From the NCBI GenBank assembly GCA_030526225.1, contig JAUNDF010000031.1:1-23628 (forward strand): a stretch of DNA of 23,628 nt. Direction: 5' to 3'. Position numbers and translations under genes: made by a program. The notes below the pieces were generated by a model. The model ran no database searches and was not told the origin of the DNA. It saw only the letters and a list, made by a program, of their open reading frames with translations. Shown here piece after piece: positions 310 through 17,231 of this stretch. This DNA comes from Clostridia bacterium (GTDB taxonomy: Bacteria > Bacillota > Clostridia > Christensenellales > Aristaeellaceae). Position 1 is the first letter of the stretch. Every line of letters starts with the position of its first letter.

Positions 310-482
310 GGGGACAAGCTCTTGTCAACAGCGCTCGGTACCTGATGTTATTTTCATTCGTTGAGCAATGCGGCATTACGTTCATAAAACAGATAATAGA
401 ATGTCGCATTTAGCTAATCCGGCATATCCAACGAACACATAGAACGTTCCGTTGGTTCTTTTCTGTTATTTCTTTTGCAAAA

Positions 483-546
483 AGACTGGTAGTGCGCTAC
501 ATTCGCATTGTAGAGGCTACGGGTTCGACTCCCGTATGCTCAACCA
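483..546 (+). tRNA. Truncated tRNA: D-loop to CCA only. The anticodon loop reads CGC (Ala-type if it were functional). The 5' acceptor strand and 5' D-stem are missing.
   Basis: Anticodon arm CTACA/TTCGCAT/TGTAG (497-513). T-arm ACGGG/TTCGACT/CCCGT (519-535). Acceptor 3' strand ATGCTCA, then A, then CCA (536-546). Upstream sequence (AAAA...) cannot pair with D-stem GTGC, and no TGAGCAT partner for the acceptor strand is present. Confidence 0.6.
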
Positions 547-811: not shown

Positions 812-1144
812 TCAAACCTCAGTATATTCGTCCATCGATTCAGCAGTAATCTCCGCTGCAACTTCGTCATACATACCATTGAGGTTCTTAAGAAATTGCA
901 TATTACACGGACGTCCATGCTCAAAACAAAAGATCTCAATGCCGGCTTTTGTAAGTGCTTCGCAGCATCCGAGCAGACGCTTCAAGTCATGTCGGTCTGT
1001 ATATCCGCACTTAAGTAAATAGTCTTTGTTTTCTATACGTCTCTTGATATCGGCAATAGAAATTGCCTCATACCCTCGCACAACTGAGACGCATTTCGAC
1101 AGAGTCGCGTCTGCTGGGACCTTAATACCGATAATACTTTCCAT
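812..1144 (-). CDS. Small hypothetical protein, putative immunity protein for the upstream GHH nuclease toxin
   Basis: 110-aa ORF. The ATG at 1144-1142 is preceded by GAGGAGGAG, which overlaps the toxin stop codon. Position immediately 3' of a toxin domain is typical of toxin/immunity pairs. No family recognised from sequence. Confidence 0.5.
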   Translation of the reverse strand: MESIIGIKVPADATLSKCVSVVRGYEAISIADIKRRIENKDYLLKCGYTDRHDLKRLLGCCEALTKAGIEIFCFEHGRPCNMQFLKNLNGMYDEVAAEITAESMDEYTEV

Positions 1145-1155
1145 TTTACTCCTCC

Positions 1156-1682
1156 TCAGAAATCTACGATGATGATGATGGGAATGCCAGGCCTGCTCTT
1201 CCGGAAATTACCGCCATGCCAGCCATAGAGATGCTCATTAAAAGTAGCGGGGTAAATAACCTCTCCTTTATCTGCAAGGTGCGGATACTTGATTACACTG
1301 TATGTGTGATGTCCTTGAATGGTCTTGCCGCTATGTTTCGGTTTGCTACCACTCAGTATTGACTATAATTGTTCCTGTGTCCAGCGCCGCGTACCGGGTT
1401 GTCCCGCAAGAATGCGCTCTCTCTCTTGTTCCCAAAACTTATTTACGCCTCGAGTCCTTCGTTCAGCAAGTCGCACATTACTCATATGCTGCTTATATTC
1501 ATTTTTGGTAGCGGTTTTGTTATCTACACGTCTCTTGAGTTCTCGTGCCGACAACTTGCTGATTTTTTTACAGGATGCTCCCGCAAGTCTAACCCCTTAG
1601 TTCGCAATGCGATGACATCAAAGTTACCTACATGAAATGCACCAATTGTTCCAGTAAATAACCTGCTATTACCTTTACTCAT
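1156..1682 (-). pseudogene. GHH-signature HNH/EndoVII-fold nuclease toxin (Tox-GHH-like), interrupted by a frame change at an A7 run and by one in-frame TAG
   Basis: ATG at 1682-1680 follows RBS GGGAGGGAG. The frame changes at the A7 run (T7 on the plus strand, 1563-1569). In-frame TAG at 1363-1365. After the TAG the frame reads SGKTIQGHHTYSVIKYPHLADKGEVIYPATFNEHLYGWHGGNF, and before it ...RRWTQEQL, both typical of GHH toxins. TGA stop at 1156-1158. Confidence 0.6.
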
Positions 1683-1683
1683 A

Positions 1684-2487
1684 TCACTCCCTCCCTTCGA
1701 AGACCTGGGCGGTCTTACTACTGAAGAAAATGATATTGATTCCTCGGCTTCTCAGTTTATCGAAGCAAGCGCCTCTTGCCGAACCATAAACCAAAATGGT
1801 GTGAGGTTGGAGCTGTTTAACCATAGCGAAGAGGCCGGCTTCAAAACGTTCTCGGTTAATGAGCTTGCGAGGACCGCCTCCGACGGTCCCAATGGCAACA
1901 ATGCTGTTTTGGGGAATCCCTTCAAAGCAATAATCAAAGGTTTCTTCTGTACCCCAACGAACATTATTGATGACGGGAAGTCCATTTTTCCCGAGCCAAT
2001 ACCCATACAGGCGCATGCGATAGGTCGCATAAATCTTGATGGCCTCAGGAAAGTCTTGATACGTGGAAAAATCAGGAGTGATTGCACCGGCAAAATGACG
2101 AAGAACGCGCAGTGCTTGCTTACAGTCATGCCAGATACCACGTGGTCCATCAAACTTCTGATCGTCGATGTAGAAACACACATACGCATCGTGAGTAAAA
2201 TCATACTTCTTGAGGGCGATGTGTTTCTTATAGATCGCCTTGGCTTCTTCCCAAGTAATAAGCGCACTGGGCAAAGTCTTTGCCGTGGTTGGGCAGAAAG
2301 GGATGTCATGCTTGCCAAACATTGCACCATCTGCCATAAAGGCATTCCAGATATCCTTCAGTCCTGGTCTGACACTATCATTGACCTTTATGTTGTCATT
2401 TGGCAGAGAAACAAGGCGAATATCGGATGCCTTTATACCGCTCAGGACTGTGTCAACATCCATGTCGAACAGGGAGAGTTGATTCAT
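1684..2487 (-). CDS. DUF4417 domain protein
   Basis: 267-aa ORF. The motif block CFYIDDQKFDG...ITPDFSTYQDFPEAIKIYATYRMRLYGYWLGKNGLPVINNVRWGTEETFDYCFEGIPQNSIVAIGT matches my recollection of the DUF4417 signature (FYIDDxxF, PDFS, N/TxYR, VIPxVxWG, CFxGI). TGA stop. Confidence 0.75.
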   Translation of the reverse strand: MNQLSLFDMDVDTVLSGIKASDIRLVSLPNDNIKVNDSVRPGLKDIWNAFMADGAMFGKHDIPFCPTTAKTLPSALITWEEAKAIYKKHIALKKYDFTHDAYVCFYIDDQKFDGPRGIWHDCKQALRVLRHFAGAITPDFSTYQDFPEAIKIYATYRMRLYGYWLGKNGLPVINNVRWGTEETFDYCFEGIPQNSIVAIGTVGGGPRKLINRERFEAGLFAMVKQLQPHTILVYGSARGACFDKLRSRGINIIFFSSKTAQVFEGRE

Positions 2488-2577
2488 TATCGGTCACCAC
2501 CAAATACAGTAGTCAACACTATTTCGTGCTGCTATCTGTATTCTATCGAGAGGTGGCCGATAAGTCGTTCTGACGCA

Positions 2578-2608
2578 GTTGCGATGAAGTTGCGATGAGT
2601 AGCGATGG
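2578..2608. repeat. Three tandem 10-11 bp direct repeats GT(T/A)GCGATG(A/G)
   Basis: GTTGCGATGA at 2578-2587 and 2589-2598, GTAGCGATGG at 2599-2608. They lie in the 139-bp gap between the TIR-like gene stop and the DUF4417 start. Confidence 0.6.
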
Positions 2609-2626
2609 TTGTTATATTACATAGAA

Positions 2627-3145
2627 TTAGCTCATGATGGCATTCTTGATGGATTGATAGTCCCAATATAGTTCTCCGTCAATACCTCTATACATTGCAG
2701 CGACATGCTGCCCTTTGTATCGAAGCACTTCCGGGCACTTATTCCGATTAATGTGGGTAGCATTATAGAGAACAACAATTTTTAGCCCATCGTTGGCTGC
2801 CTTCTGACATTCATATTGGATAAAACTTCGGTAATCAATATGCATGCCGTGTGCACAGTTTGCCGTATGTGAATTATAGCAACTGCAGTACCGACAGCTA
2901 CCTTTTGTGAGCGAGTTGGTAGTTTCGCCAACTATCAGCACAAAGGTTTTTGATGCATCAAGACGTACCGCCAAGGATTTTTTAATGCTACATGGGAGGC
3001 TTGTATCCCGCGCCTGCGTTATTTCGTGTGCATCAAAAAAAGAAAGCGTCAATCTCTGGCTATTGTTCCAATAATACAAAGTATCAATCAAATCTTTGTC
3101 GCCAGTCCAGTCACCGGCAATATATGTTTTCGTCCGATAGGCCAT
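2627..3145 (-). CDS. TIR-like domain protein (DUF1863 / MTH538 TIR-like, ThsB-like) with an inserted Cys/His cluster
   Basis: 172 aa. N-terminus AYRTKTYIAGDWTGDKD...FFDAHEITQARDTSLPCSIKKSLAVRLDASKTFVLIVGETT...KCPEVL matches the DUF1863 TIR-like pattern seen in plasmid Tir and Thoeris ThsB proteins. The ATG directly abuts the upstream stop (TAAATG) and the RBS GGAGGTGGA lies inside the upstream gene. Confidence 0.7.
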   Translation of the reverse strand: MAYRTKTYIAGDWTGDKDLIDTLYYWNNSQRLTLSFFDAHEITQARDTSLPCSIKKSLAVRLDASKTFVLIVGETTNSLTKGSCRYCSCYNSHTANCAHGMHIDYRSFIQYECQKAANDGLKIVVLYNATHINRNKCPEVLRYKGQHVAAMYRGIDGELYWDYQSIKNAIMS

Positions 3146-4246
3146 TTAGTCCACCTCCATCTTTAGATCATTCATAGCTTCTTTTGAAGCTACAATCGTA
3201 ATCTGTCCTTGCAATAATTGTATATTATCCATCATTTCCTCACGGATTAGATCAAATGAGGCTTGAAAACTCAAAGCCGCGCGTGATCGGCCAGTTCCCA
3301 ACAGCGGGAGATACAATGGATAGCCATTTCCATAGCGATTATAAAATTTCAAAAGAGATAACACTGCTTTCCGAATATCGTATTCCGTACTATGGGCTAT
3401 ATTCTGTTCATCAAATGTTGAGATGGCTAGCAGATAATAGACTGCATTGCTACTATTGATAACGGCAATGCTACCGATAGCGTAATGTTTTCTTTCTGCC
3501 TGATCAACTGTGTATGTCAGCTTCTGCTTCATAAGGTTCATTTTAATTTGTGAATTTAGCTATTCAATTGTGTTGCCCGCTTTCGTCCAACGGTCAATCC
3601 ATTTTCCATGGAGTGTCGTCGGTGAAACAATAGGAGCTTCAGCACCCTCCGTTGTCCACGTGATATGTGTATCAAAAGATGTATTGACAGGAATCACTAC
3701 GATGGACGGTTGTTTCTTGCGATTGCCGAATCCGTATTTGAACAGGTCGCCTGTTATCAACTGGAGCGAATTTGTTCCACGATGCCACAGATAGTTTTCC
3801 GCTGCCGTTGTTATTCTATTGTCCAGTCTGATAGCCTCGAAGAAAGCAGCGCAGAGATAATCTGTTACATTGTTCTCAAGCCTAGACAATCGTTGCTTTG
3901 TTTCAGCAGACATCGTTGGTGTGCTATTTACAATGGCACTTATCTCTTGAATTAGGGCAGGCAGCTGCTCCTGAACAAGCGTATCATCGATGAATGCTAC
4001 AAAACCATCTTTTGTATTTTCACTGATACCGTAGGAGGACAGTGCATTTCGCATAGCAGTAGGTACATCATCCTTCTGTGACAGCAATGTACTGACACGA
4101 GATTTATTTAGGTCGAGCCTCTCTCTGTTCTTGTCCTTTATGTTGCCCGCACAGATATAAGGGGTAAATAGGTTTCGCACAAACTCTTCATCCGTTATGG
4201 ACGGGTCGATTGCTCGTTTTTTGAGTGCCGTAATGAAATATGCCAT
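3146..4246 (-). CDS. Macro-domain protein (ThsA_Macro-like) with a ~155-aa helical N-terminal domain; contains one in-frame TAG at 3560-3562
   Basis: ORFs 3560-4246 and 3146-3541 are in the same frame and separated only by a TAG. The macro-like fold spans the junction: ...LITGDLFKY...SIVVIPVNTSFDTHI...LHGKWIDRW...E[TAG]LNSQI...HYAIGSIAVI...YYLLAISTFDE...PLYLPLLGTGRSR...ITIVAS. TAA stop at 3146-3148. The RBS-like GAAGGAGGAG lies unusually far (~18 nt) from the ATG at 4246. Confidence 0.6.
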
Positions 4247-4584
4247 GCAAAACAGAGTAACACTCCTCCTTCTCAGCTTGAAAATGCATCAGCCTATGAA
4301 AGCTTCATATTCGGGTAGAAGTCGACGTGTATATCTGAGATTATGAACCATATAGAACACCGTTATCAATTATAGCACACATTCTTGCCAAAATCGATAC
4401 AAACAAAGCCTGGCCATACTCTATAGCACCAATGCAGTATGCACTATTTTTAATGCGATGTTGGTCTTTCGCTTCTAATCAACGATTTTCTCAACTGCTT
4501 TATTATATATTTTTCTTTAAGCAGGAAAAAACCGCACTTATTTTGTCCATATAAAGTAGGAGGATTAATCTTCTAACATCGTCG

Positions 4585-5463: not shown

Positions 5464-7113
5464 ATCTTCGCCATTTATCATTTGGAGGCCAAGGTCATCA
5501 GCCGCGGAAACGGCCGCAGTGCGGTGGCAGCTGCTGCTTACGCAAGCCGTTCCAATCTTTATAACGACTATGATGGCCTTCGCCATAATTACACAAGGAA
5601 GCATGATTTGCTTTGGCAGAACATCTATCTGCCGGAAAATGCGCCGGCGGCATGGTACAATCGATAGCAATTATGGAACGCCGTGGAGGCAGAAGAGTCT
5701 ACTAAGGACAGCCGGTTGGCACGGGAATTCATCCTTGCATTGCCGGTGGAATTGGACGAAAGCCGCTGGCAGGATATCCTGACGGAATACATCCGTGATA
5801 GTTTTGTTAGCGATGGTATGTGTGCCGATGTTTCGATCCACTGTGACAATGAGGGTCACAACCCACATGCCCATCTGATGGTCACCGTTCGTCCGCTGGA
5901 TGAGCATGGCGGCTGGCAGTATAAGACAAAGAAGGAATACCTCTGTGTCCGTGATGGTGCGGAGCAAGGCTTTACGGCAGAGGAGTATGCTGCCGCGAAG
6001 GCGCTTGGATGGGAGAAGCAATATCTCTTTCAGGTGGGGAAGAAGAAAGAGTATATGACCATGGAAGCAGGGCTGGCCGGCGGATATAAGCGCACGGATA
6101 AGCATCCTAAAAGCACCAAATACGGACGGCAGAACCCCATCTCTGCCAGATGGAACAGCGAAGAACAGCTGCTTGTCTGGCGTGAACAATGGGCGATTGT
6201 GGTCAACAAATATCTGGAACAGGAAGGCTTCGCGGAACGCATCGATCACCGCAGCTTTGCATAGCGCGGCATCATGGCAGAACCAACCATCCACGAAGGC
6301 GTCGTGGCCAGAGCCCTTGAAGCGAAGGGCATCATCGCCGACCGATGCGAAATCAATCGTATCATCAAGGCGGAAAACAGACTGTTGGCAGAAAACAAAA
6401 AATCCGATGTGCCTAAACAGCAACCATCGGACAATCATCAACATGTTAATGTTATTGAGAAGTGGGAGAGCATCAGAGATGAATTGATTTTCACGCAGTA
6501 CCGGCTGGCTCTCCATCAACAACGGCGGGAATCAATCGAAGCGTTTCTTTCTCAGAAGGAACCTGACATGGCCCGGTATCGTGCAAAGAGGAACGAACTG
6601 ACAGTCCTCAAAAGCAAACGAAAAGCACTGCGGAATGAGCTGGTAAATCTCGGGATGCTCCATCCCATTCAGGCCGGAAAGCTGAACAAGAAGATTGCAG
6701 AAATCACCGAAGAAATGGAAGATGTCATCAGCGAAAGAAACATGCTGTTGACCAAGCTGGACTGCGCTGATGTGAAAGAAGCAAAAGCGTTGGAAAAGCA
6801 AATTGTTTCCGCCCATGATACTCGCAATGCCATTCTTACAAAGACCCCGCAGCTCCGTAACCGAATAGAGCAATTGTGTGCATAGTACCGGCAGGGAAGT
6901 GAACAAACGGGTAAATATGACAGTGATGCTGTTGACAGAATCCACAAAGAGCATTTGCACCGGGTTCGGGCAAAGCTGGAAAGCACCTTCGGTGAAGACT
7001 TTGATGCGCAGCTGTTTGAACGGTGTGTGACAGAGGTTGATGACATGATTCAGCATGAGCATCGGTCTGTCAAACGACATGCACAGCGTGAGTAGCGGAA
7101 TGAAATGCGTTAA
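5464..7113 (+). CDS. MobA/MobL-family (MobQ-type) relaxase; single frame with four in-frame TAG codons and no canonical start codon
   Basis: Frame 1 is continuous from 5461 to the TAA at 7111-7113. Conserved relaxase motifs span the TAGs: (F)AIYHLEAKVISRGNGRSAVAAAAYASR...WYNR[TAG]QLWNAVEAEE...LAREFILALPVEL...HNPHAHLMVTVRP...IDHRSFA[TAG]RGIMAEPTIHEG...LCA[TAG]YRQG... (69 open codons) ...QRE[TAG]RNEMR. TAGs at 5665, 6262, 6883 and 7093. The start is uncertain: ATC 5464, ATT 5473 or TTG 5482. Confidence 0.7.
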
Positions 7114-7499
7114 TCCACTTCTTCACGGAAACGCTGTGCTATTTTGGCGATTCGCTTGGTGATGGCACTGGGGGATTTCAGCCCAAGGGTTGATGCAATA
7201 TCTCCCAGTGCTTTCCCTTCGGCCCGCATCTGAAGAATCATCATGTCTTCATCAGACAGTCCTTTTTTGAATTCTTCGATGCTCGTTTTACGGACAACAT
7301 CCTCGGCGGTATGTGATGCGTATGCATCTGAATCAAAGATTTTCGCATTGTTCTCGAGCATTTGCTCCAGAGAATATACTGCCTTGACCTTGGTGTCTGA
7401 ACGCACATGCGTCCAGCGTTTCATGAAGTCCTTCACGGCATAATTATCACTGCCGTTGTAGTCTTCCAACTGGCGATTGTTCCAAACAGCATCGATCAA
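7110..7499 (-). CDS. Sigma-70 region-4 / LuxR-type HTH protein (ICE/IME-type small sigma-like regulator)
   Basis: C-terminus LSDEDMMILQMRAEGKALGDIASTLGLKSPSAITKRIAKIAQRF is a region-4-type HTH. TAA stop at 7110-7112 overlaps the relaxase TAA. The start is uncertain: TTG 7499, or ATG 7424 with AAGGA upstream, or a fusion to the upstream ORF through the TAG at 7515-7517. Confidence 0.55.
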   Translation of the reverse strand: MIDAVWNNRQLEDYNGSDNYAVKDFMKRWTHVRSDTKVKAVYSLEQMLENNAKIFDSDAYASHTAEDVVRKTSIEEFKKGLSDEDMMILQMRAEGKALGDIASTLGLKSPSAITKRIAKIAQRFREEVD

Positions 7500-7514
7500 G
7501 GGCTGAAGATTTTC

Positions 7515-8036
7515 CTACCGGATAATCATGTCAGTCAGATTACCGACGAGATTGCCGAAGTGCTTGTAATCAAGCCAAGGAACACGAACGCCCGGCGGCA
7601 TCAGAAACAGCCGCTGAAAGCTGAAGCCCATGTCTGTTTCAAACTTTTCCCGGAAGAACATCTGCAAATAATAGCTCAACCGCCACAACGGAAAATCACC
7701 GGAGTAATAGCTCCAGTCCCCGGGAATGTCACGATAGGTGCCATCCTTCAGCGGAATCTGTATGAATTGCCAGATAGACCAGGCGTAACAATCCCAGACA
7801 AGCTCAAGAAATGCATCATCCTCAATCAGCTTGACACATTCCGATGATGACAATAACTCGTTGATGTTGCGGGGAAGGGCAGCGTATTCCGGACGCTTTC
7901 CTGCCAGCTCCGACGGCAAAGCATAGAACATGGGCAGCCAGGACAGGTTCGAAGATTTCGGGATTTCGATTATCGTATCGGGCAGCACAGCGATATAACC
8001 CATAGGGCCGGGGTTTGAATGAACAGCTTCGATCAT
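7515..8036 (-). CDS. Hypothetical protein (173 aa); ends at a TAG that is in frame with the downstream HTH ORF
   Basis: ATG at 8036-8034 is preceded by AAGGGAGAA. Translation MIEAVHSNPGPMGYIAVLPDT... No family recognised. The TAG at 7515-7517 is followed by 5 sense codons and then the 7499 ORF in the same frame. Confidence 0.45.
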   Translation of the reverse strand: MIEAVHSNPGPMGYIAVLPDTIIEIPKSSNLSWLPMFYALPSELAGKRPEYAALPRNINELLSSSECVKLIEDDAFLELVWDCYAWSIWQFIQIPLKDGTYRDIPGDWSYYSGDFPLWRLSYYLQMFFREKFETDMGFSFQRLFLMPPGVRVPWLDYKHFGNLVGNLTDMIIR

Positions 8037-8150
8037 GGCATTCTCCCTTATTAGCAAATTTCGATGAATCCATTATACCATATTGACGATTAGTCTACAA
8101 CAAGCCGGCGCGTAAACCTTGATGAATCAATTTAAAATTCAAAAACAGTG

Positions 8151-8206: not shown

Positions 8207-8566
8207 ATGAAAATTGTATCGGAACGACTCAAGAGCCTGCGTCAAAGTATGGGCATTTCCCAAGCGAAACTGGCAGAAATGTTCGGATCACGGCAAGCCA
8301 ACATCAACCGCTATGAGCATGATGAAACGCAGCCGTCCATTGCTGTACTTTGCCAGTATGCGGATTTCTTTGATGTTTCCCTTGATTACATTTGCGGACG
8401 AACAGATGAACCGCAAGGAAAGCTGTACAAGGTAGAGCCTGCCTATTCTCCTGACAAGGAGCTCATGGCGAAGTTTATCGAAATGTGTTTTGAACCTGGC
8501 TCTTTGGCCAACAAGAAGCTGCGGGAAACCATGTTGAAAATTGCGATGGAGGAAACAGAAAAATGA
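8207..8566 (+). CDS. Xre-family helix-turn-helix transcriptional regulator
   Basis: ATG at 8207 follows AAGGAGG. LKSLRQSMGISQAKLAEMFGSRQANINRYEHDETQPSIAVLCQYADFFDVSLDYICGRTD is a typical HTH_3 domain. The TGA overlaps the recombinase ATG (ATGA). Confidence 0.8.
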   Translation: MKIVSERLKSLRQSMGISQAKLAEMFGSRQANINRYEHDETQPSIAVLCQYADFFDVSLDYICGRTDEPQGKLYKVEPAYSPDKELMAKFIEMCFEPGSLANKKLRETMLKIAMEETEK

Positions 8567-10083
8567 CAGGTGTCATCTATGCTCGCTACTCCTCTGACAA
8601 TCAGCGTGAGGAAAGCATTGAAGGGCAGTTGCGTGAGTGCATGGCATTTGCGGAAAGAAGCGGGATTACAATCATTGCCAACTACATCGACCGGGCTATG
8701 TCGGCCCGGACTGCTGACCGTCCTGATTTTCAGCGAATGATTAAGGACAGTGAAAAGAAGCTGTTTGATGTGGTCATCGTTTGGATATTAGACCGATTTT
8801 CCCGTGACCGTTATGACAGTGCCAATTACAAACACATTCTGAAAAAGAATGGTGTGAAGGTTATATCTACTACGGAAAATATCTCGGATGGCCCGGAAGG
8901 TGTCCTGTTGGAATCTATGTTGGAAGGTCTGTCCGAATACTACTCTGCTGAACTGTCTGTAAAAATTCATCGCGGGCAGATGGAGAATGCTTTGAAAGGC
9001 AAGAACAACGGCGGTAACATTCCATTGGGATATCGAACAGGCGAAGATGGTGTATTGGAAATCAATCCAGTGACGGTGCCTGTTGTGCAAGAAATCTTTC
9101 AGCGCTATGATGAAGGTGACAGCATGACAGACATTGTGGATTCGCTCAATGAACGAGGTATCCGCACAGCAAAAGGATTGCCCTTTCGCATCGGCAGTCT
9201 TGGTACAGTGCTGAAAAATCGCAAATACATCGGCGAGTATCGCTACGGAACGATTGTGATTCCGAATAAGCTGCCGGTCATCATTGATGAAGCGCAATTT
9301 AATCGGGTACAGCAGAAGCTGCAGACCAACAAGCGTGCTCCTGCTCGTGCAAAGGCAGAGGAAGAGTATTTGCTGACAACAAAGCTGTTTTGCGGCAAGT
9401 GTGACACCATGCTCGTCGGCGAAAGCGGCAGAAGCCGCAACGGAGATGTCCACCATTATTACAAGTGCGGAAATGCCAAGCGCGGAAAAGGCTGTAAATT
9501 GAAGACGCTGAAAAAACGCTGGATAGAGCAAGCTGTCGTAGCAGCCACCATTCAGCGTGTGATGAATGACGATGTGATTGACAGAATTGCCGATGCAATT
9601 GTCGCACTTCAGGAAAAAGAAAGCACGATGCTGCCTTCGTTGAATCAGCAGTTGAAAGAATGCGAAAAGTCAATTCGGAACATGCTGAATGCCATCGAGG
9701 CCGGCATTATCACACCTTCTACCAAAGAGCATTTGCAGGAGCTGGAAGCTCGCCGGGAAGAACTCAAAGTTGCGATTCTTCAGGAAAAGCTCCAGCGCCC
9801 AAAGCTTACCAAGGAACAAATTGTATTCTGGATCAGCCGCTACAAGCACGGAGATCCCAATGACCTGAACTATCAGCGGCAAATCATCGATACATTCATC
9901 AACAGAATCTATGTGTATGATGAAAAATTGGTGCTGACTTATAACTATAAAGAGAGAGCTGAATCAATTACCCTGGAAGATATTCAGCAGGCATTTGGTT
10001 CGGATTTGTCGAGTATTGCTCCACAAAACAGAAGCCCGAACCTTTTCCCACTGTGGAACAAGGTTCGGGTTTTCTTTGCCTAA
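8563..10083 (+). CDS. Large serine recombinase (resolvase/invertase N-terminal domain + recombinase domain + zinc ribbon)
   Basis: 506 aa. N-terminus VIYARYSSDNQREESIEGQ...RPDFQRM...VVIVWILDRFSRD (catalytic Ser motif). Cys cluster CGKCDTML...YYKCGNAKRGKGC. Coiled-coil C-terminal part. The last ~25-30 codons run through the repeat/hairpin at 10011-10080. TAA stop. Confidence 0.9.
   Translation: MTGVIYARYSSDNQREESIEGQLRECMAFAERSGITIIANYIDRAMSARTADRPDFQRMIKDSEKKLFDVVIVWILDRFSRDRYDSANYKHILKKNGVKVISTTENISDGPEGVLLESMLEGLSEYYSAELSVKIHRGQMENALKGKNNGGNIPLGYRTGEDGVLEINPVTVPVVQEIFQRYDEGDSMTDIVDSLNERGIRTAKGLPFRIGSLGTVLKNRKYIGEYRYGTIVIPNKLPVIIDEAQFNRVQQKLQTNKRAPARAKAEEEYLLTTKLFCGKCDTMLVGESGRSRNGDVHHYYKCGNAKRGKGCKLKTLKKRWIEQAVVAATIQRVMNDDVIDRIADAIVALQEKESTMLPSLNQQLKECEKSIRNMLNAIEAGIITPSTKEHLQELEARREELKVAILQEKLQRPKLTKEQIVFWISRYKHGDPNDLNYQRQIIDTFINRIYVYDEKLVLTYNYKERAESITLEDIQQAFGSDLSSIAPQNRSPNLFPLWNKVRVFFA
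10011..10080 (+). repeat. Right copy of the imperfect direct repeat (tRNA-3'-end-like sequence plus hairpin), inside the 3' end of the recombinase ORF
   Basis: CCCGAACCTT (10035-10044) pairs with AAGGTTCGGG (10060-10069). Inner TTCC/GGAA pairing, followed by TTTTCTTTG. Same architecture and flanks as 536-606. Confidence 0.55.
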
Positions 10084-10212: not shown

Positions 10213-11505
10213 TCACGCCGAAGCGCAATCGAAGAATTTCTTGTAAATCGCCCGGGTGCTGTCCTCGAAGCAGGCTTCTTCCACGCCGATGACAATGCTC
10301 ATGGGGCTGCCGCCCTGGTCGATAATCCGCACGTTTGTGCCGATGTCACCCACGGCGGAGAACAGCTTGCCGGAAATGCCCGGGCGGTTCATCATGCCAA
10401 AGCCGACCACGGCAATCATGGCGAAGCCGTCGGTGATTTCCAGCCTGTCCGGGTCAACGGCCTTGCGGATGTCCTGGGTCAGGGCATCACGACAGCTCTC
10501 CAGCGCGGCGGTGGGTACCACCAGCGAGAAGGCGGAAAGTCCGGTGGCCATATGCTCAAAGGCCACGCTGTACCGCTCAAGGCAGGAAAGGGTCTTGCGC
10601 ACATAGCCGACCATGGCGTTCATCTTTTCCTTTTCGATGGAGATGACGGAGAAGCCCTTGCGGCCCGCAACGCCGGTGACGGGATTGTCGTGGGTCACGT
10701 TTTCGGCGCGAATCCACGTGCCCTCTGCCTCGGGGCAGAAGGTGTTGCAGATGTGAATGGGGATGCCTGCATCCCATGCGGGGCGGACGGCATCCTCGTG
10801 GAGCACGGTAGCGCCCTGATAGGTCATCTCCTGCAGCTCTTCATAGGTGATGGTGGGGATGGTGACCGCCTGTGACACAATGCGGGGATCGGCGGTCAGG
10901 ATGCCGTTGACATCCGTCCAGTTTTCGTACACCTCGGCATGCATGGCAGCCGCAACCAGCGCGCCGGAAATGTCGCTGCCGCCGCGGCTGAAGGTGTGCA
11001 CCTGACCGTCGGGCATGGCACCGTAATAGCCGGGCAGCACGGCATGCTCCAGCTGGGACAGCTTGTCCCGCAGGGTGCGCTCTGTCTTCCGGCGGTCCAG
11101 ACGCCCCTGTTCATCGAAAAACACGCAGAACTCCGTATCCACAAAGGGCCAGCCCAGATAGGCGGCCATAATCCGTGCGGACAGGTATTCGCCGCAGGAG
11201 GCCATGTAATCCACATTGTGGCGCTGATGCTTCATCTCAGCATAGTCCTGGCTCAGGTCGATTTCGACGCCCAGTTCGCTGATAATCTCCGCAAAGCGGT
11301 CCTCAATGGGCTGAAAATCCTTTACATCACCGGTGTGATAGAACCGGATGAGATGGTCGGTGATTTTCGTGTCACCGGCATTGCGTTTTCCGGGGGCGGA
11401 AACCACCACGAAGCGCCGTTCCGGATTGGCGCGGATAATGTCCGCGGCGCGGCGGATGTTCTGTGCGTCCGCCAGGGAGGAGCCGCCGAATTTGCAGGCA
11501 ATCAT
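10213..11505 (-). CDS. Aspartate kinase
   Basis: MIACKFGGSSLADAQNIRRAADII...FVVVSAPGK... plus C-terminal ACT-like repeats. The second ATG (11505) has a GGAGGG RBS at good spacing. TGA stop. Confidence 0.85.
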   Translation of the reverse strand: MIACKFGGSSLADAQNIRRAADIIRANPERRFVVVSAPGKRNAGDTKITDHLIRFYHTGDVKDFQPIEDRFAEIISELGVEIDLSQDYAEMKHQRHNVDYMASCGEYLSARIMAAYLGWPFVDTEFCVFFDEQGRLDRRKTERTLRDKLSQLEHAVLPGYYGAMPDGQVHTFSRGGSDISGALVAAAMHAEVYENWTDVNGILTADPRIVSQAVTIPTITYEELQEMTYQGATVLHEDAVRPAWDAGIPIHICNTFCPEAEGTWIRAENVTHDNPVTGVAGRKGFSVISIEKEKMNAMVGYVRKTLSCLERYSVAFEHMATGLSAFSLVVPTAALESCRDALTQDIRKAVDPDRLEITDGFAMIAVVGFGMMNRPGISGKLFSAVGDIGTNVRIIDQGGSPMSIVIGVEEACFEDSTRAIYKKFFDCASA

Positions 11506-11553
11506 GCTTGTTCCCTCCATGCTGCGGTCCGGGGATGACCGGGCCTTATTAGT

Positions 11554-12759
11554 TTACCGCCGGCTGCCCAAGCGGCATTTGAAATCCTCATAGCCGAAGG
11601 TGCGCAGGGGCTGGATGCTGCCATCCTGTCTGCGGACAAGAATCGCAGGCAGTGGCATACCGTTGAAGGTGTTGTTTTTGCAGGTGGTGTAAATGGCCAT
11701 GTCACCAAAGAGCAGCAGCTCGCCCTCCTGCAGGGGATGGTCGAAGCTGTAGTCGCCGATGATATCGCCCGCCAGACAGGTGGGTCCGCCCAACCGGACA
11801 GTGCAGGCCTTCTCGTTTGCCTCTCCGGCATCATACAGGGGAGGACGATAGGGCATCTCAATCACATCGGGCATATGACAGGCGGCACTGGCATCAAGAA
11901 TGGCAAGGGATGTATCGCCGTTGCGGGAGGTATCCAGCACACGGGTGGCCAGATAACCGGCATTCAGGGCACAGGCTTCGCCGGGCTCCAGATACACCTG
12001 TACGCCCCATGTGTCGCGGGCATGGCAGATGCACTTCTCCAGCCGGGCCACATCGTAATCACTGCGGGTGATGTGATGGCCGCCGCCCATGTTCAGCCAC
12101 GTCATGCGGGGGAGAACATCGCCGAATTTGGCCTCTACTGCCTGCAGGGTTGTTTCCAGCGCATCGCTGTCCTGCTCGCAGAGGGTGTGGAAGTGGAGAC
12201 CGTCCAGCAGGGCGATGGTGTCCTCGTCCATGGCTGCATCCCACTGGGCGCGGGTGGTACCCAACCGGCTGCCGGGGGCGCAGGGGTCATAGATTTCATG
12301 GCCCTCCTGCGTGGAGCATTCCGGGTTGATGCGCAGACCGATGCTCTTGCCGGCTGCCTTGGCAGAAGGACCGAACTTCTTCAGCTGATTCGGGGAGTTG
12401 AACACAATGTGGTCAGCCCAGTCAAGCAGCTCGGCGAACTCATCCTCACGATAGGCGCCGCAGAAAACATGCACCTCGCCGTCAGGCATTTCCTCCCGGC
12501 CCAGCCGTGCCTCATACAGGCCGCTGGCTTCGGTGCCGGCCAGATAGGGCGCAAGCACCGGATAAAGGTCGTAGTTGGAGAAGGCCTTCTGGGCCAGCAG
12601 AATCTTTGCGCCGGTGCGCTGCATCACCCCGGCAAGCATCTCACCGTTGCGGCGCAGCATTGCTTCATCCAGAATATAGCAGGGCGTGGGCAGCGCACCG
12701 AAAAGCTCCTCCGGTGTGCTGCCGCCAAGGCCCATAAAGCAATCGCGTGTATCCATCAT
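11554..12759 (-). CDS. nspC: Carboxynorspermidine/carboxyspermidine decarboxylase
   Basis: 401 aa. TPCYILDEAMLRRN...ILLAQKAFS...GTEASGLYEARLGREE...GLRINPE...YDPCAPGSRLG matches the NspC/CANSDC family. The ATG overlaps the upstream stop by 1 nt (12759). Confidence 0.85.
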   Translation of the reverse strand: MMDTRDCFMGLGGSTPEELFGALPTPCYILDEAMLRRNGEMLAGVMQRTGAKILLAQKAFSNYDLYPVLAPYLAGTEASGLYEARLGREEMPDGEVHVFCGAYREDEFAELLDWADHIVFNSPNQLKKFGPSAKAAGKSIGLRINPECSTQEGHEIYDPCAPGSRLGTTRAQWDAAMDEDTIALLDGLHFHTLCEQDSDALETTLQAVEAKFGDVLPRMTWLNMGGGHHITRSDYDVARLEKCICHARDTWGVQVYLEPGEACALNAGYLATRVLDTSRNGDTSLAILDASAACHMPDVIEMPYRPPLYDAGEANEKACTVRLGGPTCLAGDIIGDYSFDHPLQEGELLLFGDMAIYTTCKNNTFNGMPLPAILVRRQDGSIQPLRTFGYEDFKCRLGSRR

Positions 12760-14018
12760 CAGTCCACCAGCACGGGAGCATGGTTCTCACTGCGGGGGAG
12801 ACCATACTTGTCCAGTGCATCCAGGAAAGGATCGGGATCGAACTCCTCCACGGTGTGCACGCCCTTTTCGGTCCACTTGCCGGTCAGCAGCATCAGTGCG
12901 CCGCACATGGCGGGTACGCCGGTGGTGTAGCTGATGGCCTGAGAGCCCACCTCGCGGTAGCATTCCTGATGGTCGCAGACGTTGTAGATGTAGTAGGTCT
13001 TGTCCTGACCGTCCTTCTTGCCGGTGAAGATGCAGCCGATGTTGGTCTTGCCGTGGGTACGGGGGCCAAGGCTGGCGGGATCGGGCAGCAGGGCCTTCAG
13101 GAACTTGATGGGCACAATCTCCTTGCCCTCAAACATGATGGGGGTGGTGGACAGCATGCCCACATCCTCCAGACAGCGCATGTGATCCAGATAGCTCTGA
13201 CCAAAGGTCATGAAGAAGCGGATGCGCTTTGCCTCGGGGATGTTCAGGGCGATGGACTCAATCTCCTCGTGATGCAGCAGGTACATGTCCTTCTGACCAA
13301 CCTGATCGAAATCATACTCGCGCTTGATGGACATGGCGGGGATTTCCACCCAATGGCCGTCCTCCCAGTAGCTGCCGGGAGCGCTGACCTCGCGGAGGTT
13401 GACCTCCGGGTTAAAGTTGGTGGCAAACTTGTAGCCATGGTCGCCGCCGTTGCAGTCCAGAATATCGATGGTGTCGATGGTGTCGAACTCATGCTTCTTG
13501 GCATAAGCGCAGTATGCCTGAGTAACGCCGGGGTCGAAGCCGCAGCCCAGCAGGGCGGTCAGGCCGGCATCCTCAAACTTCTGCCGGTATGCCCACTGCC
13601 AGCTGTAATCAAAGTAGGCAGAGAAGCCGGCTTCCTTGCAGCGCTTTTCATAAATGGCGCGCCACTCGGGATCGTCGGTATCCTCGGGCTCGTAGTTGGC
13701 GGTATCCATGTAGTTTACGCCGCAGGCCAGGCAGGCATCCATGATGGTCAGATCCTGATAGGGCAGGGCGATGTTCATCACCAGATCGGGCTTGTAGTCG
13801 TTGATGAGCGCAATCAGCTCCTCCACCTTGTCGGCATCCACCTGAGCGGTGGTGATTTTGGTGGCGGTGTTGGGGGCCAGCTTGGCGGCCAGGGCATCGC
13901 ACTTGGACTTGGTGCGGCTGGCAATGCACAGCTCGGTGAATACCTCGCTGACCTGACAGCACTTGGAAATAGCAACCGTGGCCACGCCGCCGCAGCCGAT
14001 AACCAATACTCTGCTCAT
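12759..14018 (-). CDS. Carboxynorspermidine synthase/dehydrogenase (saccharopine dehydrogenase family)
   Basis: 419 aa. N-terminal Rossmann motif VLVIGCGGVA. Full-length resemblance to CANSDH/CASDH proteins (...GCGFDPGVT...FATNFNPEVNLRE...). Adjacent to nspC. Confidence 0.8.
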   Translation of the reverse strand: MSRVLVIGCGGVATVAISKCCQVSEVFTELCIASRTKSKCDALAAKLAPNTATKITTAQVDADKVEELIALINDYKPDLVMNIALPYQDLTIMDACLACGVNYMDTANYEPEDTDDPEWRAIYEKRCKEAGFSAYFDYSWQWAYRQKFEDAGLTALLGCGFDPGVTQAYCAYAKKHEFDTIDTIDILDCNGGDHGYKFATNFNPEVNLREVSAPGSYWEDGHWVEIPAMSIKREYDFDQVGQKDMYLLHHEEIESIALNIPEAKRIRFFMTFGQSYLDHMRCLEDVGMLSTTPIMFEGKEIVPIKFLKALLPDPASLGPRTHGKTNIGCIFTGKKDGQDKTYYIYNVCDHQECYREVGSQAISYTTGVPAMCGALMLLTGKWTEKGVHTVEEFDPDPFLDALDKYGLPRSENHAPVLVD

Positions 14019-14051
14019 GATGATTTCCTCCTGTATCTATGATGTTGATTG

Positions 14052-14909
14052 TTACTTTGTCAGCAGGGCCAGCAGCAGCTCCCGCAGGACCTTGCAGGCA
14101 GTGGCGGTGGAAACGCCGGTGGTATCCAGCATGGGTGCCAGCTCGTTGACATCACAGCCGACGATATTGCACCGGGTCACCGTGCGGATGGCACCCAGCA
14201 GCTGCAGGAAGGTGATGCCGCCTGCTTCAGGGGTGCCCGTTCCGGGGAACGCGGACGGGTCAAGGCAGTCAAGGTCGATGGTGAAGTAAACCGGTGTACC
14301 GGCTGCCTTCAGCTGGGCAACGCACTCCTCCAGACCGTCAAGGGTCAGGGGATGCATATCCGTATGCTCTTTGGCAAAGCGGAATTCCTCCCGCTCACCG
14401 CTGCGGATGCAGAACTGGTGGATGCGGCCGTCGCCCACAAGGTCATGGCAGCGGCGCAGCACGCAGGCATGGCTCAGCTTTGCGCCAAGGTAATCATCCC
14501 GCAGGTCTGCATGGGCATCAAAGTGGATGATGTGCACATCCGGATGATGCCGCAGCACAGCCCGGAAGCTGCCCAGGGTCACCAGATGCTCGCCGCCGAT
14601 GAGCAGGGGCAGCTTGCCATCTTTCAGGATGGTTTCCGCGCGCTCTTCGATATCTGCCAGAGCCTGCTCCGCACTGCCGAAGCACAGCTCCAGATCGCCG
14701 CTGTCGAACACGCTGTAGTCGGTCAAGTCAGCATCCTGATAGGGGCTGTAGGTCTCCAAACCAAAGCTTTCATGCCGCATGGCGGCGGAGCCGAACCGGG
14801 CGCCGGGACGGAAGGAGGTGGTGGAGTCAAAGGGAGCGCCGAACAGCACGATGGATGCATCCTCGTAGGAGGCATCGCAGCCGATAAAGGTCTCAACATT
14901 CCGTTCCAT
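14052..14909 (-). CDS. speB: Agmatinase (ureohydrolase family)
   Basis: 285 aa. Mn-binding motifs GGEHLVT, HFDAHADL, IDLDCLDPSAFPGTGTPEAGG. The ATG overlaps the speE stop by 1 nt. Confidence 0.85.
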   Translation of the reverse strand: MERNVETFIGCDASYEDASIVLFGAPFDSTTSFRPGARFGSAAMRHESFGLETYSPYQDADLTDYSVFDSGDLELCFGSAEQALADIEERAETILKDGKLPLLIGGEHLVTLGSFRAVLRHHPDVHIIHFDAHADLRDDYLGAKLSHACVLRRCHDLVGDGRIHQFCIRSGEREEFRFAKEHTDMHPLTLDGLEECVAQLKAAGTPVYFTIDLDCLDPSAFPGTGTPEAGGITFLQLLGAIRTVTRCNIVGCDVNELAPMLDTTGVSTATACKVLRELLLALLTK

Positions 14910-15763
14910 TATTCTTCAACCTCCATGAGCATTTCCTCCAGGAAGGCCGGCAGGGCAAAGGCACCCTGATGCAGCCGGGGAGTGTAGTACCGGGTGCGCA
15001 GGTTCAGGCTGTACCAATCCTCGGCATTCAGGTCGTTGATGGGATGATACTTCTTGCTGGCAAAGCCGAAGAGCCAGTAGCCGGCAGCGTAGGTGGGAAT
15101 ATGGGCCTGATACACCTTGCTGATGGGGAAGGTGTTGACGATGCGCTTGTGGCTGCGCTGCATGGCCTCTGCATCCTCGGCATAGAAGGGGCTGCCCTGC
15201 TGATTCACCATGATGCCGTCATCCTTCAGGGCGTTGTAGCAGTTGCCATAGAATTCGCGGGTGAACAGACCCTCGGAAGGGCCGAAGGGGTCGGTGGAGT
15301 CCACGATAATCAGATCGTATTCTTCCTCACGGTTGCGGATAAAGCGCAGGGCGTTTTCAAAATGGATGTGCACCCGGCGGTCATCCATGCGGCAGGCGTT
15401 TCCGGGCAGGAATTCGCGGCAGGCCTCGATAACCACCGGATCCATTTCCACCAGATCGATGCGGCGGATGCGGTCATAGCGGGTCAGCTCCCGAACCACG
15501 CCGCCGTCACCGGCACCGATGACCAGCACATCCCGGATGCCGGGATGCACCGCCATGGGCACGTGGGTAATCATTTCGTCATAGATAAATTCGTCGCGCT
15601 CTGTCAGCATGACATTGCCGTCCAAAGCCAGCACCCGGCCGAATTCGGGGGTCTCGAAAATGTCAATCTGCTGGTAGCTGCTCTTTTTGGAAAACAGATG
15701 CCGCGTCACCCGCAGGGAGTGGCGCACATGCTTGGTATGATACTCGCTGAACCACATTTCCAT
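14909..15763 (-). CDS. speE: Spermidine synthase / polyamine aminopropyltransferase
   Basis: 284 aa. WFSE...QQIDIFET..FGRVLALDG..MLTERDEFIYDEM..VLVIGAGDGGVVRE..IIVDSTDPFGP. Confidence 0.9.
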   Translation of the reverse strand: MEMWFSEYHTKHVRHSLRVTRHLFSKKSSYQQIDIFETPEFGRVLALDGNVMLTERDEFIYDEMITHVPMAVHPGIRDVLVIGAGDGGVVRELTRYDRIRRIDLVEMDPVVIEACREFLPGNACRMDDRRVHIHFENALRFIRNREEEYDLIIVDSTDPFGPSEGLFTREFYGNCYNALKDDGIMVNQQGSPFYAEDAEAMQRSHKRIVNTFPISKVYQAHIPTYAAGYWLFGFASKKYHPINDLNAEDWYSLNLRTRYYTPRLHQGAFALPAFLEEMLMEVEE

Positions 15764-15776
15764 GGCATTTTCCTCC

Positions 15777-17231
15777 TTACTTCAGCACATTGAGCCGCAG
15801 GATATCCGGGTCCTCGGGGCCGGTCATAGAGCAGCCCTTGTCCTTGGCAAACTCAATATAGTCCAGAATTTCACGGGTGATTCTCTCGCCGGGGGCCAGA
15901 ATCGGGATGCCCGGGGGATAGCACATCACAAACTCACTGCACACCTGACCCTCTGTTTCGCGAAGGGGCAGGGATACCTTCTCGGCATAGAAGGCTTCCT
16001 GCGGTGAGGTAACCACGATGGGGTCGATGTATTCCTGCTTCAGCAGGTCGGAGCTGTCCCGCTGATAGCGGCGGCGGATTTCGGCCAGTGCGCTGACGAG
16101 ACGCTCCAGCTCCTGCACACGGTCGCCCATGGACAGGTATGCCAGAATGTTGCCGATGTCGCCGAACTCAATCTGGATGTCGTATTCATCCCGCAGAATG
16201 TCATAGACCTCAATGCCCGCCAGACCGATGCTGCGGGTGTTGATGGAAAGCTTGGTGGGGTCGAAATCAAACACGGAGTTGCCGTTGCGCAGCTCCTTGC
16301 CGAAAGCGTAGTAGCCGCCGATGGCATTGACCTCTTCCCGGGCGTATTCCGCCATGTCTTCCACCCCGTGGAACACCTGACGGCCGCGCAGGGCCAGATT
16401 CCGGCGGGAGATGTCAAGGCTGGACATCAGCAGATAGCTGCCGGAGGTGGTCTGGGTCAGGTTGATAATCTGGCGCACATAGCCCGCATGGATGTTGGGG
16501 CCGCACAGCAGCAGGCTGGACTGGGTCAGGCTGCCGCCGCTTTTGTGCATGGATACGGAGGCCATATCAGCCCCGGCCTCCATGGCGGATACGGGCATGG
16601 AGGTGCCGAAGTAGAAGTGGGTGCCGTGGGCCTCGTCGGCAAGGCACAGCATACCGGCTTCGTGGGCCATGCGCACGATGGAGCGCAGGTCGGAGCAGAC
16701 ACCGTAGTAGGTGGGGTTGTTGACCAGCACGGCCACGGCGGAGGGATGCTCCCGGATGGCCTTGGCCAGACTCTCGCGGGTCATGCCCAGGGAAATGCCC
16801 AGCTTCTGGTCCACATCGGGATTGACGTAAACCGGCACCGCGCCGCACAGCACCAGCGCATTGATGACACTGCGGTGCACATTGCGGGGCAGGATGATTT
16901 CATCGCCGCGCTTGCAGGCAGTCAGCACCATGCTCTGCACAGAGCTGGTGGTGCCGCCCACCATCAGGAATGCATGAGCCGCGCCGAAGGCATCCGCCGC
17001 CAGCTCCTCAGCTTCCCGGATGACGGAAATGGGGTGGCAGAGGTTATCAAGGGGCTTCATGCTGTTTACGTCCAGGCTGACGCAGCGTTCGCCAAGGAAT
17101 GCGGTCAGCTCCGGATTGCCTCGTCCGCGCTTGTGACCGGGTACGTCAAAGGGAACGACCCGCATCTGCCGGAACCGCTGCAGCGCTTCGTAAATCGGAG
17201 CGCGGTTCTGGTCGAGTTTCATCTTCTTCAT
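15777..17231 (-). CDS. speA: Arginine (Orn/Lys/Arg family, PLP-dependent) decarboxylase
   Basis: 484 aa. Orn/Lys/Arg decarboxylase major-domain pattern with the PLP-lysine motif SMHKSGGSLTQSS. First gene of the polyamine operon, as with Bacillus-type SpeA. Confidence 0.8.
   Translation of the reverse strand: MKKMKLDQNRAPIYEALQRFRQMRVVPFDVPGHKRGRGNPELTAFLGERCVSLDVNSMKPLDNLCHPISVIREAEELAADAFGAAHAFLMVGGTTSSVQSMVLTACKRGDEIILPRNVHRSVINALVLCGAVPVYVNPDVDQKLGISLGMTRESLAKAIREHPSAVAVLVNNPTYYGVCSDLRSIVRMAHEAGMLCLADEAHGTHFYFGTSMPVSAMEAGADMASVSMHKSGGSLTQSSLLLCGPNIHAGYVRQIINLTQTTSGSYLLMSSLDISRRNLALRGRQVFHGVEDMAEYAREEVNAIGGYYAFGKELRNGNSVFDFDPTKLSINTRSIGLAGIEVYDILRDEYDIQIEFGDIGNILAYLSMGDRVQELERLVSALAEIRRRYQRDSSDLLKQEYIDPIVVTSPQEAFYAEKVSLPLRETEGQVCSEFVMCYPPGIPILAPGERITREILDYIEFAKDKGCSMTGPEDPDILRLNVLK

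Follow-up and report, generated by a model that had tools for sequence, protein, structure and literature searches.

A putative derivative of type II Thoeris with a soluble N-terminal domain shared with Lamassu LmuA-type proteins on a mobilisable island of a Clostridia bacterium

Contig JAUNDF010000031.1 of a Clostridia bacterium (assembly GCA_030526225.1) carries a pair of genes that resembles the type II Thoeris defence system. Here we describe this pair and its surroundings in the whole stretch of DNA that was analysed, 23,628 nucleotides in length and hereafter called the window. The thsA-like gene lies on the reverse strand at 3146..4246 and consists of 366 codons including one in-frame TAG, with its TAA stop at 3146-3148; the TAG is codon 229 (3560-3562, reverse strand) and the sole in-frame stop of the frame. 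The gene encodes an N-terminal domain, here named N-dom (residues 1-148; 3803..4246, reverse strand), which is soluble, all-helical and about 150 aa long, followed by a ThsA-type Macro domain (residues 149-356; 3179..3802, reverse strand) that was recognised with PDLC00408, PF20016 and Foldseek and is broken by the TAG. Next to it on the same strand is a thsB-like TIR gene of 172 aa (2627..3145; PADLOC PDLC00427, Pfam PF08937). The junction of the two genes reads ...ATGGAGGTGGAC TAA ATG GCC..., with the ATG immediately 3' of the stop, and the Shine-Dalgarno sequence of thsB, GGAGGTGG, is located within the final thsA codons. Owing to this TAA-ATG junction and to the position of GGAGGTGG, the translational coupling of thsA and thsB is real, as had been proposed in an earlier reading of the letters alone (hereafter the sequence-only reading) from the TAAATG and the ribosome-binding site within the upstream gene.

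Both proteins were assigned to Thoeris, and not to unrelated families, by the PADLOC profiles. Translated through the TAG, ThsA matched Pfam ThsA_Macro (PF20016) at 4.5e-29 over residues 163-340 and PADLOC ThsA (PDLC00408) at 5.5e-56, the latter only over profile positions 73-288 of 297, so that profile positions 1-72 have no match in the window protein. ThsB matched PDLC00427 over its full length (2.2e-79) and Pfam ThsB_TIR (PF08937, formerly DUF1863) at 1.7e-6. A search of 5.8 billion proteins returned a ThsA family of at least 106 clusters at 90% identity, most members of which are 350-390 aa long and span the whole query including its N-terminal part. Intact homologues of 353-390 aa cover 96-100% of the window thsA, and the closest is 86% identical. 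In 34 related loci, which were drawn from genomes and metagenomes, the two genes are kept as neighbours, a ThsB homologue immediately adjoining thsA in 31 of them. These loci come from Lachnospiraceae, Oscillospiraceae, Erysipelotrichaceae, Mogibacterium and Eubacterium and are surrounded by restriction-modification and other defence genes; no family member was found in IMG/VR viral contigs. Intact thsA copies are present in isolate genomes, including Lachnospira pectinoschiza M83 and Lachnobacterium bovis DSM 14045. Individual loci and proteins are cited below by their L and P numbers.

One feature that defines type II Thoeris, two N-terminal transmembrane helices, was looked for in the window ThsA and is absent. 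The highest 19-residue Kyte-Doolittle mean of the N-dom region has a family median of 0.94, against 2.6-2.8 for the same measure in transmembrane-type ThsA from the same bacteria (L030-L033), in agreement with the earlier claim that the Macro protein has no transmembrane helices. The all-helical character claimed for the N-terminal region also holds in structure prediction, an AlphaFold2 run on the N-terminal 150 aa alone, with the window sequence first, giving 8 helices at a pLDDT of 93. A stretch said to resemble a helix-turn-helix (HTH) matched no HTH family, but it is the most conserved motif of the N-dom (K48, S52, P62). S52 and N143 never vary across all N-dom architectures, and K48 and P62 hardly ever do. 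Searches of Pfam, NCBIfam, PADLOC and PHROGs assigned the N-dom to no family, and its model had no significant Foldseek match in the PDB or BFVD. The sole profile match in PDB sequences was RecX (E = 7e-5), which we regard as a lead only; RecX is a three-helix-repeat protein that binds RecA filaments.

The Macro part was analysed with an AlphaFold2 model of the closest intact ThsA homologue (89 sequences, pLDDT 92.7). Its best PDB matches in Foldseek were 8r66, 8v6q, 8v6r and 8v6s (E ~1e-10, TM-score up to 0.76), of which 8r66 is a ThsA Macro domain with its signalling molecule, 8v6q and 8v6r are EcThsA and 8v6s is PcThsA; the full-length model recovered Macro domains only. In Bacillus amyloliquefaciens ThsA, the histidine conjugate of ADP-ribose (His-ADPR) is contacted by N133, S194 and R240 (10.1101/2024.01.03.573942), and these contacts were transferred to the window protein by HMMER alignment to 8r66. 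Window S276 aligns to S194 and is at least 90% conserved in the family, R322 aligns to R240 and is invariant, and the ribose-contacting N133 is replaced by a His (His213) that is invariant in the window family. On this alignment, an ADP-ribose (ADPR)-derived ligand of the Macro domain, perhaps an amino-acid conjugate, is plausible. ThsA Macro domains form ligand-induced higher-order oligomers (PMC11204291).

The nearest solved structure to ThsB is EcThsB2 (8v6t), with an alignment that ends at residue 83. Conserved among 32 ThsB homologues are E112, C52, C84, C87, C97, C113, C137 and H147. These residues are also present in the ThsB proteins partnered with transmembrane-type ThsA (L030-L033), and the ThsB of L032/L033 is 60% identical to that of the window. 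The extra Cys/His cluster pointed out by the sequence-only reading does exist, but it is not peculiar to the window gene: only C84, C87 and C97 of it are conserved, and since the same residues are kept in loci with a transmembrane-Macro ThsA, the Cys cluster is a trait of the subfamily.

The window pair thus shares with type II Thoeris (B. amyloliquefaciens Y2 ThsA/ThsB; Escherichia coli EcThsA/EcThsB2) the adjacency of a DUF1863/ThsB_TIR protein and a ThsA_Macro protein, a Macro fold matching 8r66, 8v6q and 8v6s, and the Ser and Arg that align to His-ADPR contacts; in Firmicutes, ThsB proteins of its subfamily are also partnered with transmembrane-Macro ThsA. It differs in that the soluble N-dom replaces the two transmembrane helices of ThsA and a His stands in place of Asn133, and in that N-dom ThsA, unlike the transmembrane-ThsA loci, is associated with a DUF4417-toxin cassette and a repeat element. 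The literature that we found on type II ThsA describes transmembrane plus Macro proteins only. Judged from its sequence, the pair is best described as a derivative of type II Thoeris, supported as a family resemblance and without the transmembrane effector feature. The earlier proposal of a Thoeris variant with a different effector therefore stands as to the profiles, the Macro structure, the ThsB adjacency and the different N-terminal module; it is weakened by the TAG in the window copy, whose thsA frame is interrupted while homologues are intact.

The N-dom is not confined to ThsA. An N-dom profile searched against 1.84 billion representatives returned 440 clusters, mostly of the N-dom plus Macro architecture. 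In a second architecture the N-dom is fused to Pfam CTD6 or CTD11, C-terminal domains (CTDs) of the effector proteins of ABC-3C/Lamassu systems; such genes share their loci with MC2 or MC7 and an ABC ATPase and have BREX or other defence genes as neighbours, and PADLOC identified their products as LmuA (PDLC03857, 1e-62). A third architecture has an unannotated C-terminus of about 330 aa (P0439, P0467; loci L128 and L129/L130). This region had no Pfam or PADLOC match and may be another sensor domain; the two genes adjoin MmeI-type restriction genes and DUF4417 cassettes. The N-dom is, on these domain arrangements, a portable module common to Thoeris-type ThsA and Lamassu LmuA-type proteins. 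In Lamassu LmuA the N-terminal part is the effector and the CTD docks it, release being followed by tetramerisation, so that activation by oligomerisation is documented there (PMC10586767; 10.1101/2025.06.23.660979). The LmuA subtype of Lamassu/ABC-3C (PDLC03857) has the same N-dom at its N-terminus as the window family, and its N-dom genes have the same upstream box and repeats as other N-dom genes. The window protein has a Macro domain where LmuA has its CTD, and its partner is a TIR protein instead of LmuB/LmuC; no LmuA CTD (CTD1-12) and no SMC/ABC ATPase LmuB was found in the window. Lamassu-type N-dom loci also differ from N-dom ThsA loci in that they are without DUF4417. The window system is not a Lamassu system, and shares with LmuA-type proteins the N-dom alone.

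The DUF4417-toxin-immunity cassette lies on the reverse strand of the window beside thsB. It consists of a DUF4417 gene of 267 aa (1684..2487; Pfam PF14386, 8.6e-42), a Tox-GHH-like polymorphic toxin gene that starts MSKGNSRLFTGTIG (1156..1682), and a small immunity-like gene of 110 aa downstream of the toxin (812..1144), which is homologous to the post-toxin genes of L010, L017, L034 and L041. The toxin gene is frameshifted in an A7 run and has an in-frame TAG at 1363-1365; by tblastn, the Tox-GHH protein of L041 aligns to it in two frames with 55% identity. The order DUF4417, toxin, small immunity-like gene, the overlap of the toxin start with the DUF4417 stop and the MSKG motif are the same in DUF4417-led cassettes of Firmicutes mobile elements. 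All cassette toxins share the start MSKGxSGLFxGTxG, beyond which they differ and carry deaminase-like, AHH, GHH or other domains. DUF4417 adjoins N-dom ThsA in 25 of the 27 loci with enough flank, as against 0/4 transmembrane-ThsA loci, and the adjacency extends down to 31% ThsA identity. The association follows the N-dom and not Macro or ThsB, because the Macro-less N-dom genes (P0439, P0467) have the same divergent DUF4417-toxin-immunity neighbours. DUF4417 loci without an N-dom have an XRE-type regulator as the divergent upstream gene, in the position that an N-dom protein takes in the window family; these XRE regulators are unrelated to the N-dom or to ThsA. The sequence-only reading had described a two-gene module, which is too narrow, since the DUF4417-toxin-immunity cassette and repeats with an 11-bp period travel with it. 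DUF4417 is not in PADLOC and has no sequence relative in the PDB. It is known from the literature chiefly in phages and in fusions with ParB-CTPase folds; the papers that mention it draw no link to Thoeris, and we found no description there of the DUF4417-toxin-immunity cassette of Firmicutes mobile elements.

Cassette loci were recorded in the window (812-2487, reverse strand), L001-L029, L035-L041 and L128-L130. Locus L027 (uncultured bacterium RUG13580, 369-9115) has two copies each of the ThsA and ThsB genes, interspersed with three deaminase-like toxin/immunity pairs; it has no DUF4417, and its ThsA N-termini are divergent or shortened.

A non-coding element lies at 2562..2611 (forward strand), 75-125 bp upstream of the DUF4417 start. 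It consists of the box AAGTCGTTCTGACG followed by the direct repeats AGTTGCGATGA / AGTTGCGATGA / AGTAGCGATGG with a period of 10-11; TRF, run on the window, reported 2577-2611 with a period of 11 and 2.9-3.5 copies. N-dom genes of every architecture, Lamassu included, have a box resembling AGTCGTT(C/A)(C/T) at -15 to -70 upstream, after which come 2-3 direct repeats, each of 10-11 bp, at a period of 10-12. The repeat sequence is specific to each locus while the layout is kept (e.g. GTTGCGAT, GTTACGAT, GTTGTCA, GTTTCAT, CTTGCAA). Under a simple scoring rule, at least two copies were counted upstream of 28/34 N-dom genes versus 59/283 control regions (p = 2e-12), and three copies upstream of 13/34 versus 10/283 (p = 1e-8). 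The element was seen upstream of N-dom genes in L002-L029, L042, L044, L045, L128 and L129, and was not found in the transmembrane-ThsA loci examined (L030-L032). In the window, where the thsAB segment is turned round compared with the common layout, the element does not precede thsA but separates the start of DUF4417 from the end of thsB. The closest relative, L001, is arranged in the same way, and in both the element is retained next to DUF4417 with three good copies, uncoupled from thsA. This arrangement is accounted for by one inversion of thsAB that left the element intact in its place beside DUF4417. The upstream tandem repeats suggest that the N-dom binds nucleic acid.

These features can be joined in one mechanism, to which we give about an even chance (roughly 0.5). 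On infection, ThsB would make an ADP-ribose-derived signal, possibly His-ADPR-like, which would bind the Macro domain and drive the oligomerisation of ThsA. The clustered N-doms would then bind the direct repeats, spaced by one helical turn, cooperatively and thereby act as a switch for the divergent DUF4417-toxin operon and, in most cases, for thsA itself. With such repeat binding and operon switching, the output would be gene regulation or toxin release and not membrane disruption. Lamassu-type N-dom proteins would work likewise once released and tetramerised. This regulatory mechanism is favoured by the presence of the repeats upstream of N-dom genes whatever their C-terminus, by their retention beside DUF4417 in the window and in L001, by the adjacency of DUF4417 to N-dom genes with and without Macro, by the XRE regulator that stands in their place elsewhere and, as a lead, by the RecX match.

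Several points weigh against it. The N-dom had no match to any DNA-binding family or fold in the profile and Foldseek searches, Foldseek did not back the RecX match, and the domain is mildly acidic, with a median net charge of -4 and a pI of 5.1. The repeats fall in the leader, after the likely promoter and before the ribosome-binding site, where they could act on the RNA or serve autoregulation only. DUF4417 is far commoner than the N-dom family (1458 vs 106 clusters), and their adjacency could reflect a shared insertion hotspot; the toxin cassette is not a universal target of the N-dom either, as Lamassu-type loci have the repeats and no DUF4417. Toxin and immunity genes appear to be co-transcribed, and the route by which their induction would harm the cell or the phage is not obvious. 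The window's own copy is disrupted, and the identity of the signal, the binding and an anti-phage role are all inferred from sequence.

The main rival is that the N-dom is itself a self-contained toxic effector of the kind found in common abortive-infection systems, turned against a cellular target by the ligand-induced oligomerisation of ThsA, with repeats that only autoregulate and a cassette that is a bystander sharing the same hotspot. We consider this less likely, although several observations speak for it: the N-dom takes the effector position of LmuA in operons without DUF4417 (PMC10586767), effector domains are often common to several defence systems, two polar residues (S52 and N143) never vary, and DUF4417 cassettes often occur without an N-dom. 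On the other side, the N-dom shows neither the signature of an enzyme or pore former nor a hydrophobic hairpin, and its model had no fold match; DUF4417 is adjacent in 25/27 loci, even at 31% ThsA identity, and again where the N-dom has another C-terminal domain, and the repeats were kept beside DUF4417 after thsAB had been uncoupled from them. A second alternative, raised by the sequence-only reading, is a plasmid Tir-like fertility-inhibition or anti-defence module. The Macro protein would then sequester ADPR-type immune signals and take no part in host defence. In its favour, the annotation 'Tir' is frequent among DUF1863 proteins and is also the name of 8v6t, the module sits on a mobilisable island, and Macro domains bind ADPR derivatives. 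Against this, the Thoeris-specific profiles are by far the best match for both proteins, the pairing with ThsB is conserved, the loci lie among restriction-modification and other defence genes, and the family is absent from IMG/VR viral contigs. That alternative found no support here, and we hold it to be scarcely credible.

The Thoeris effectors in the literature that we found are enzymes or membrane proteins, while here the receptor carries a small soluble domain that is common to Lamassu. If the N-dom binds the repeats, as in the regulatory mechanism, a TIR-made second messenger or the activation of Lamassu would lead to a transcriptional or translational switch and not to direct killing. 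A function would then be given to an unannotated domain in hundreds of gut Firmicutes loci, together with a first handle on DUF4417 and its MSKG-motif toxins; it could also explain a Lamassu clade reported to have 'lost' its effector, supposing that the N-dom is present there. The idea is directly testable because isolate genomes carry intact copies. At the level of the family, the findings of real interest to the defence-systems field are the exchange of the effector part for one that Lamassu also has, the conservation of the repeat element and the linkage to DUF4417 and its toxins.

The module is carried by a mobilisable island of about 10 kb that contains a DUF3847 gene, a MobA/MobL relaxase with in-frame TAGs (5482..7113, forward strand), an HTH protein and a large serine recombinase (8563..10083, forward strand), which marks the island edge adjoining the polyamine genes of the host. 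The earlier statement that the pair is cargo on a mobilizable island is borne out by the relaxase and the recombinase. The G+C content of the island is 42-50%, versus about 60% in the adjoining polyamine-biosynthesis genes. No near-identical DNA was found in phage records, and plasmid relaxases are less than 35% identical to that of the window. An ORF of 308 aa at 7110-8072 (reverse strand) had no family match; by eye, its C-terminal end resembles a sigma-70 region 4 or HTH segment. A promoter-like site, TTGATA-18-CATAAT (4340..4369, reverse strand), lies about 95 nt upstream of thsA; it comes from a consensus scan only, in which the number of sites was no higher than in shuffled sequence.

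In-frame TAGs interrupt four genes of the island. Besides those of thsA and the toxin, they are found in the relaxase (5665-5667, 6262-6264 and 6883-6885, with a further one at 7093-7095, six codons before the TAA) and in the ORF at 7110-8072 (7515-7517). Under the standard code, the TAG within the Macro domain splits thsA into pieces of 228 and 131 aa, and the NCBI annotation holds the 228-aa piece (P0006, from a 'Clostridia bacterium' metagenome-assembled genome). None of the four genes has an in-frame TAA or TGA. That six out of six in-frame stops are TAG has a probability of about 0.007 under random single-base nonsense. None of the 19 genes of the window ends in TAG (p ~0.11 at the 11% TAG use of relatives). 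Homologues carry Gln, Glu, Asp or Ala at the TAG sites; at that of thsA, the four closest have Gln and others Ala, Glu or Asp. The identity of the window ThsA to its nearest homologue, P0001, is 86.0% before the TAG and 86.9% after it, and the sequence 3' of the TAG retains every residue that is invariant in the family. In the toxin, a -1 shift at A_AAA_AAA in the A7 run (1563-1569) restores the frame of the homologues; this frameshift may reflect mutation by slippage, a fault of the assembly or a slippery site. Inactivation of thsA recurs, also in an isolate genome, since the homologues in L012 (Lachnospira multipara ATCC 19207, isolate genome) and L021 are split by frameshifts. No suppressor tRNA, with anticodon CUA, was found in the window with ARAGORN.

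Two other explanations of the TAGs were considered and set aside. Recoding of TAG throughout the host is not supported: about 11% of long ORFs end in TAG in relatives of the host operon, although these relatives are only some 78% identical to the window at the nucleotide level. A motif-wide C-to-T conversion, whether a methylation or a basecalling artefact, was rejected because ACAGC, GCAGC and similar motifs are still abundant. A restart at ATG 3541 that would give a split Macro protein was rejected because it has no ribosome-binding site and homologues have Glu-Thr there. An exact-match scan of metagenome contigs for the TAG or CAG version of the thsA site gave 0 matches.

The window copy is probably inactive unless the TAG is read through. 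As a rough split of the cause of the TAGs, we assign 45% to decay, 35-40% to read-through or suppression and the remainder to artefact. It is quite possible, at somewhat short of even odds, that the window module is a decaying relic, inert in its host, in which the thsA TAG is a plain CAG-to-TAG nonsense mutation and the toxin frameshift is real. This would fit a TAG inside the Macro domain and upstream of the ligand contacts S276 and R322, the Gln found there in the four closest homologues, the downstream ATG without a ribosome-binding site, the frameshift in the A7 run of the toxin, the frameshifted thsA copies of L012 and L021, the use of TAG as the end of about 11% of long ORFs in host-operon relatives, and a window without a suppressor tRNA. 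It fits poorly with the restriction of all six in-frame stops in four genes to TAG (P ~0.007), with the 0/19 window genes that end in TAG, and with conservation after the TAG that equals that before it (86.9% vs 86.0%) and keeps the invariant residues. A far more speculative explanation, which we rate as very improbable, is that the TAGs are a gate, so that the costly genes of the island, those of the receptor/effector ThsA, the GHH toxin and the relaxase, would be translated fully only in the presence of an amber-suppressor tRNA, e.g. from a gut phage using code 15. The TAG-free ThsB, immunity gene, DUF4417, regulator and recombinase would then be made constitutively, and defence and mobilisation would be switched on by the invader's own genetic code. 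As in the code 15 TAG recoding of gut phages, several in-frame TAGs stand at Gln/Glu/Asp-type positions and no other stops occur; unlike those phages, the window is a mobilisable island without matching phage DNA, its ThsA family is absent from IMG/VR, it has no suppressor tRNA, and one of its genes is also frameshifted. Interruption by TAG alone poses a puzzle of its own, with a bearing on the suppression of stop codons in gut bacteria.

At the start of the window, an Rfam tRNA match was found at 472-538 (forward strand) with 30.7 bits (gathering score 29) and the anticodon loop UUCGCAU (CGC, Ala). Its 5' acceptor strand is unpaired, ARAGORN was silent on it, and a terminator-like hairpin follows at 548-600; it looks like a 5'-truncated tRNA remnant, perhaps the att-site scar of another element. 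Next to the serine recombinase, the host polyamine cluster (10213-17231) encodes aspartokinase, a carboxynorspermidine-type decarboxylase and dehydrogenase, agmatinase, spermidine synthase and arginine decarboxylase. Over positions 11554-17216, synteny extends to many contigs from the human gut, and nucleotide identity is about 78%.

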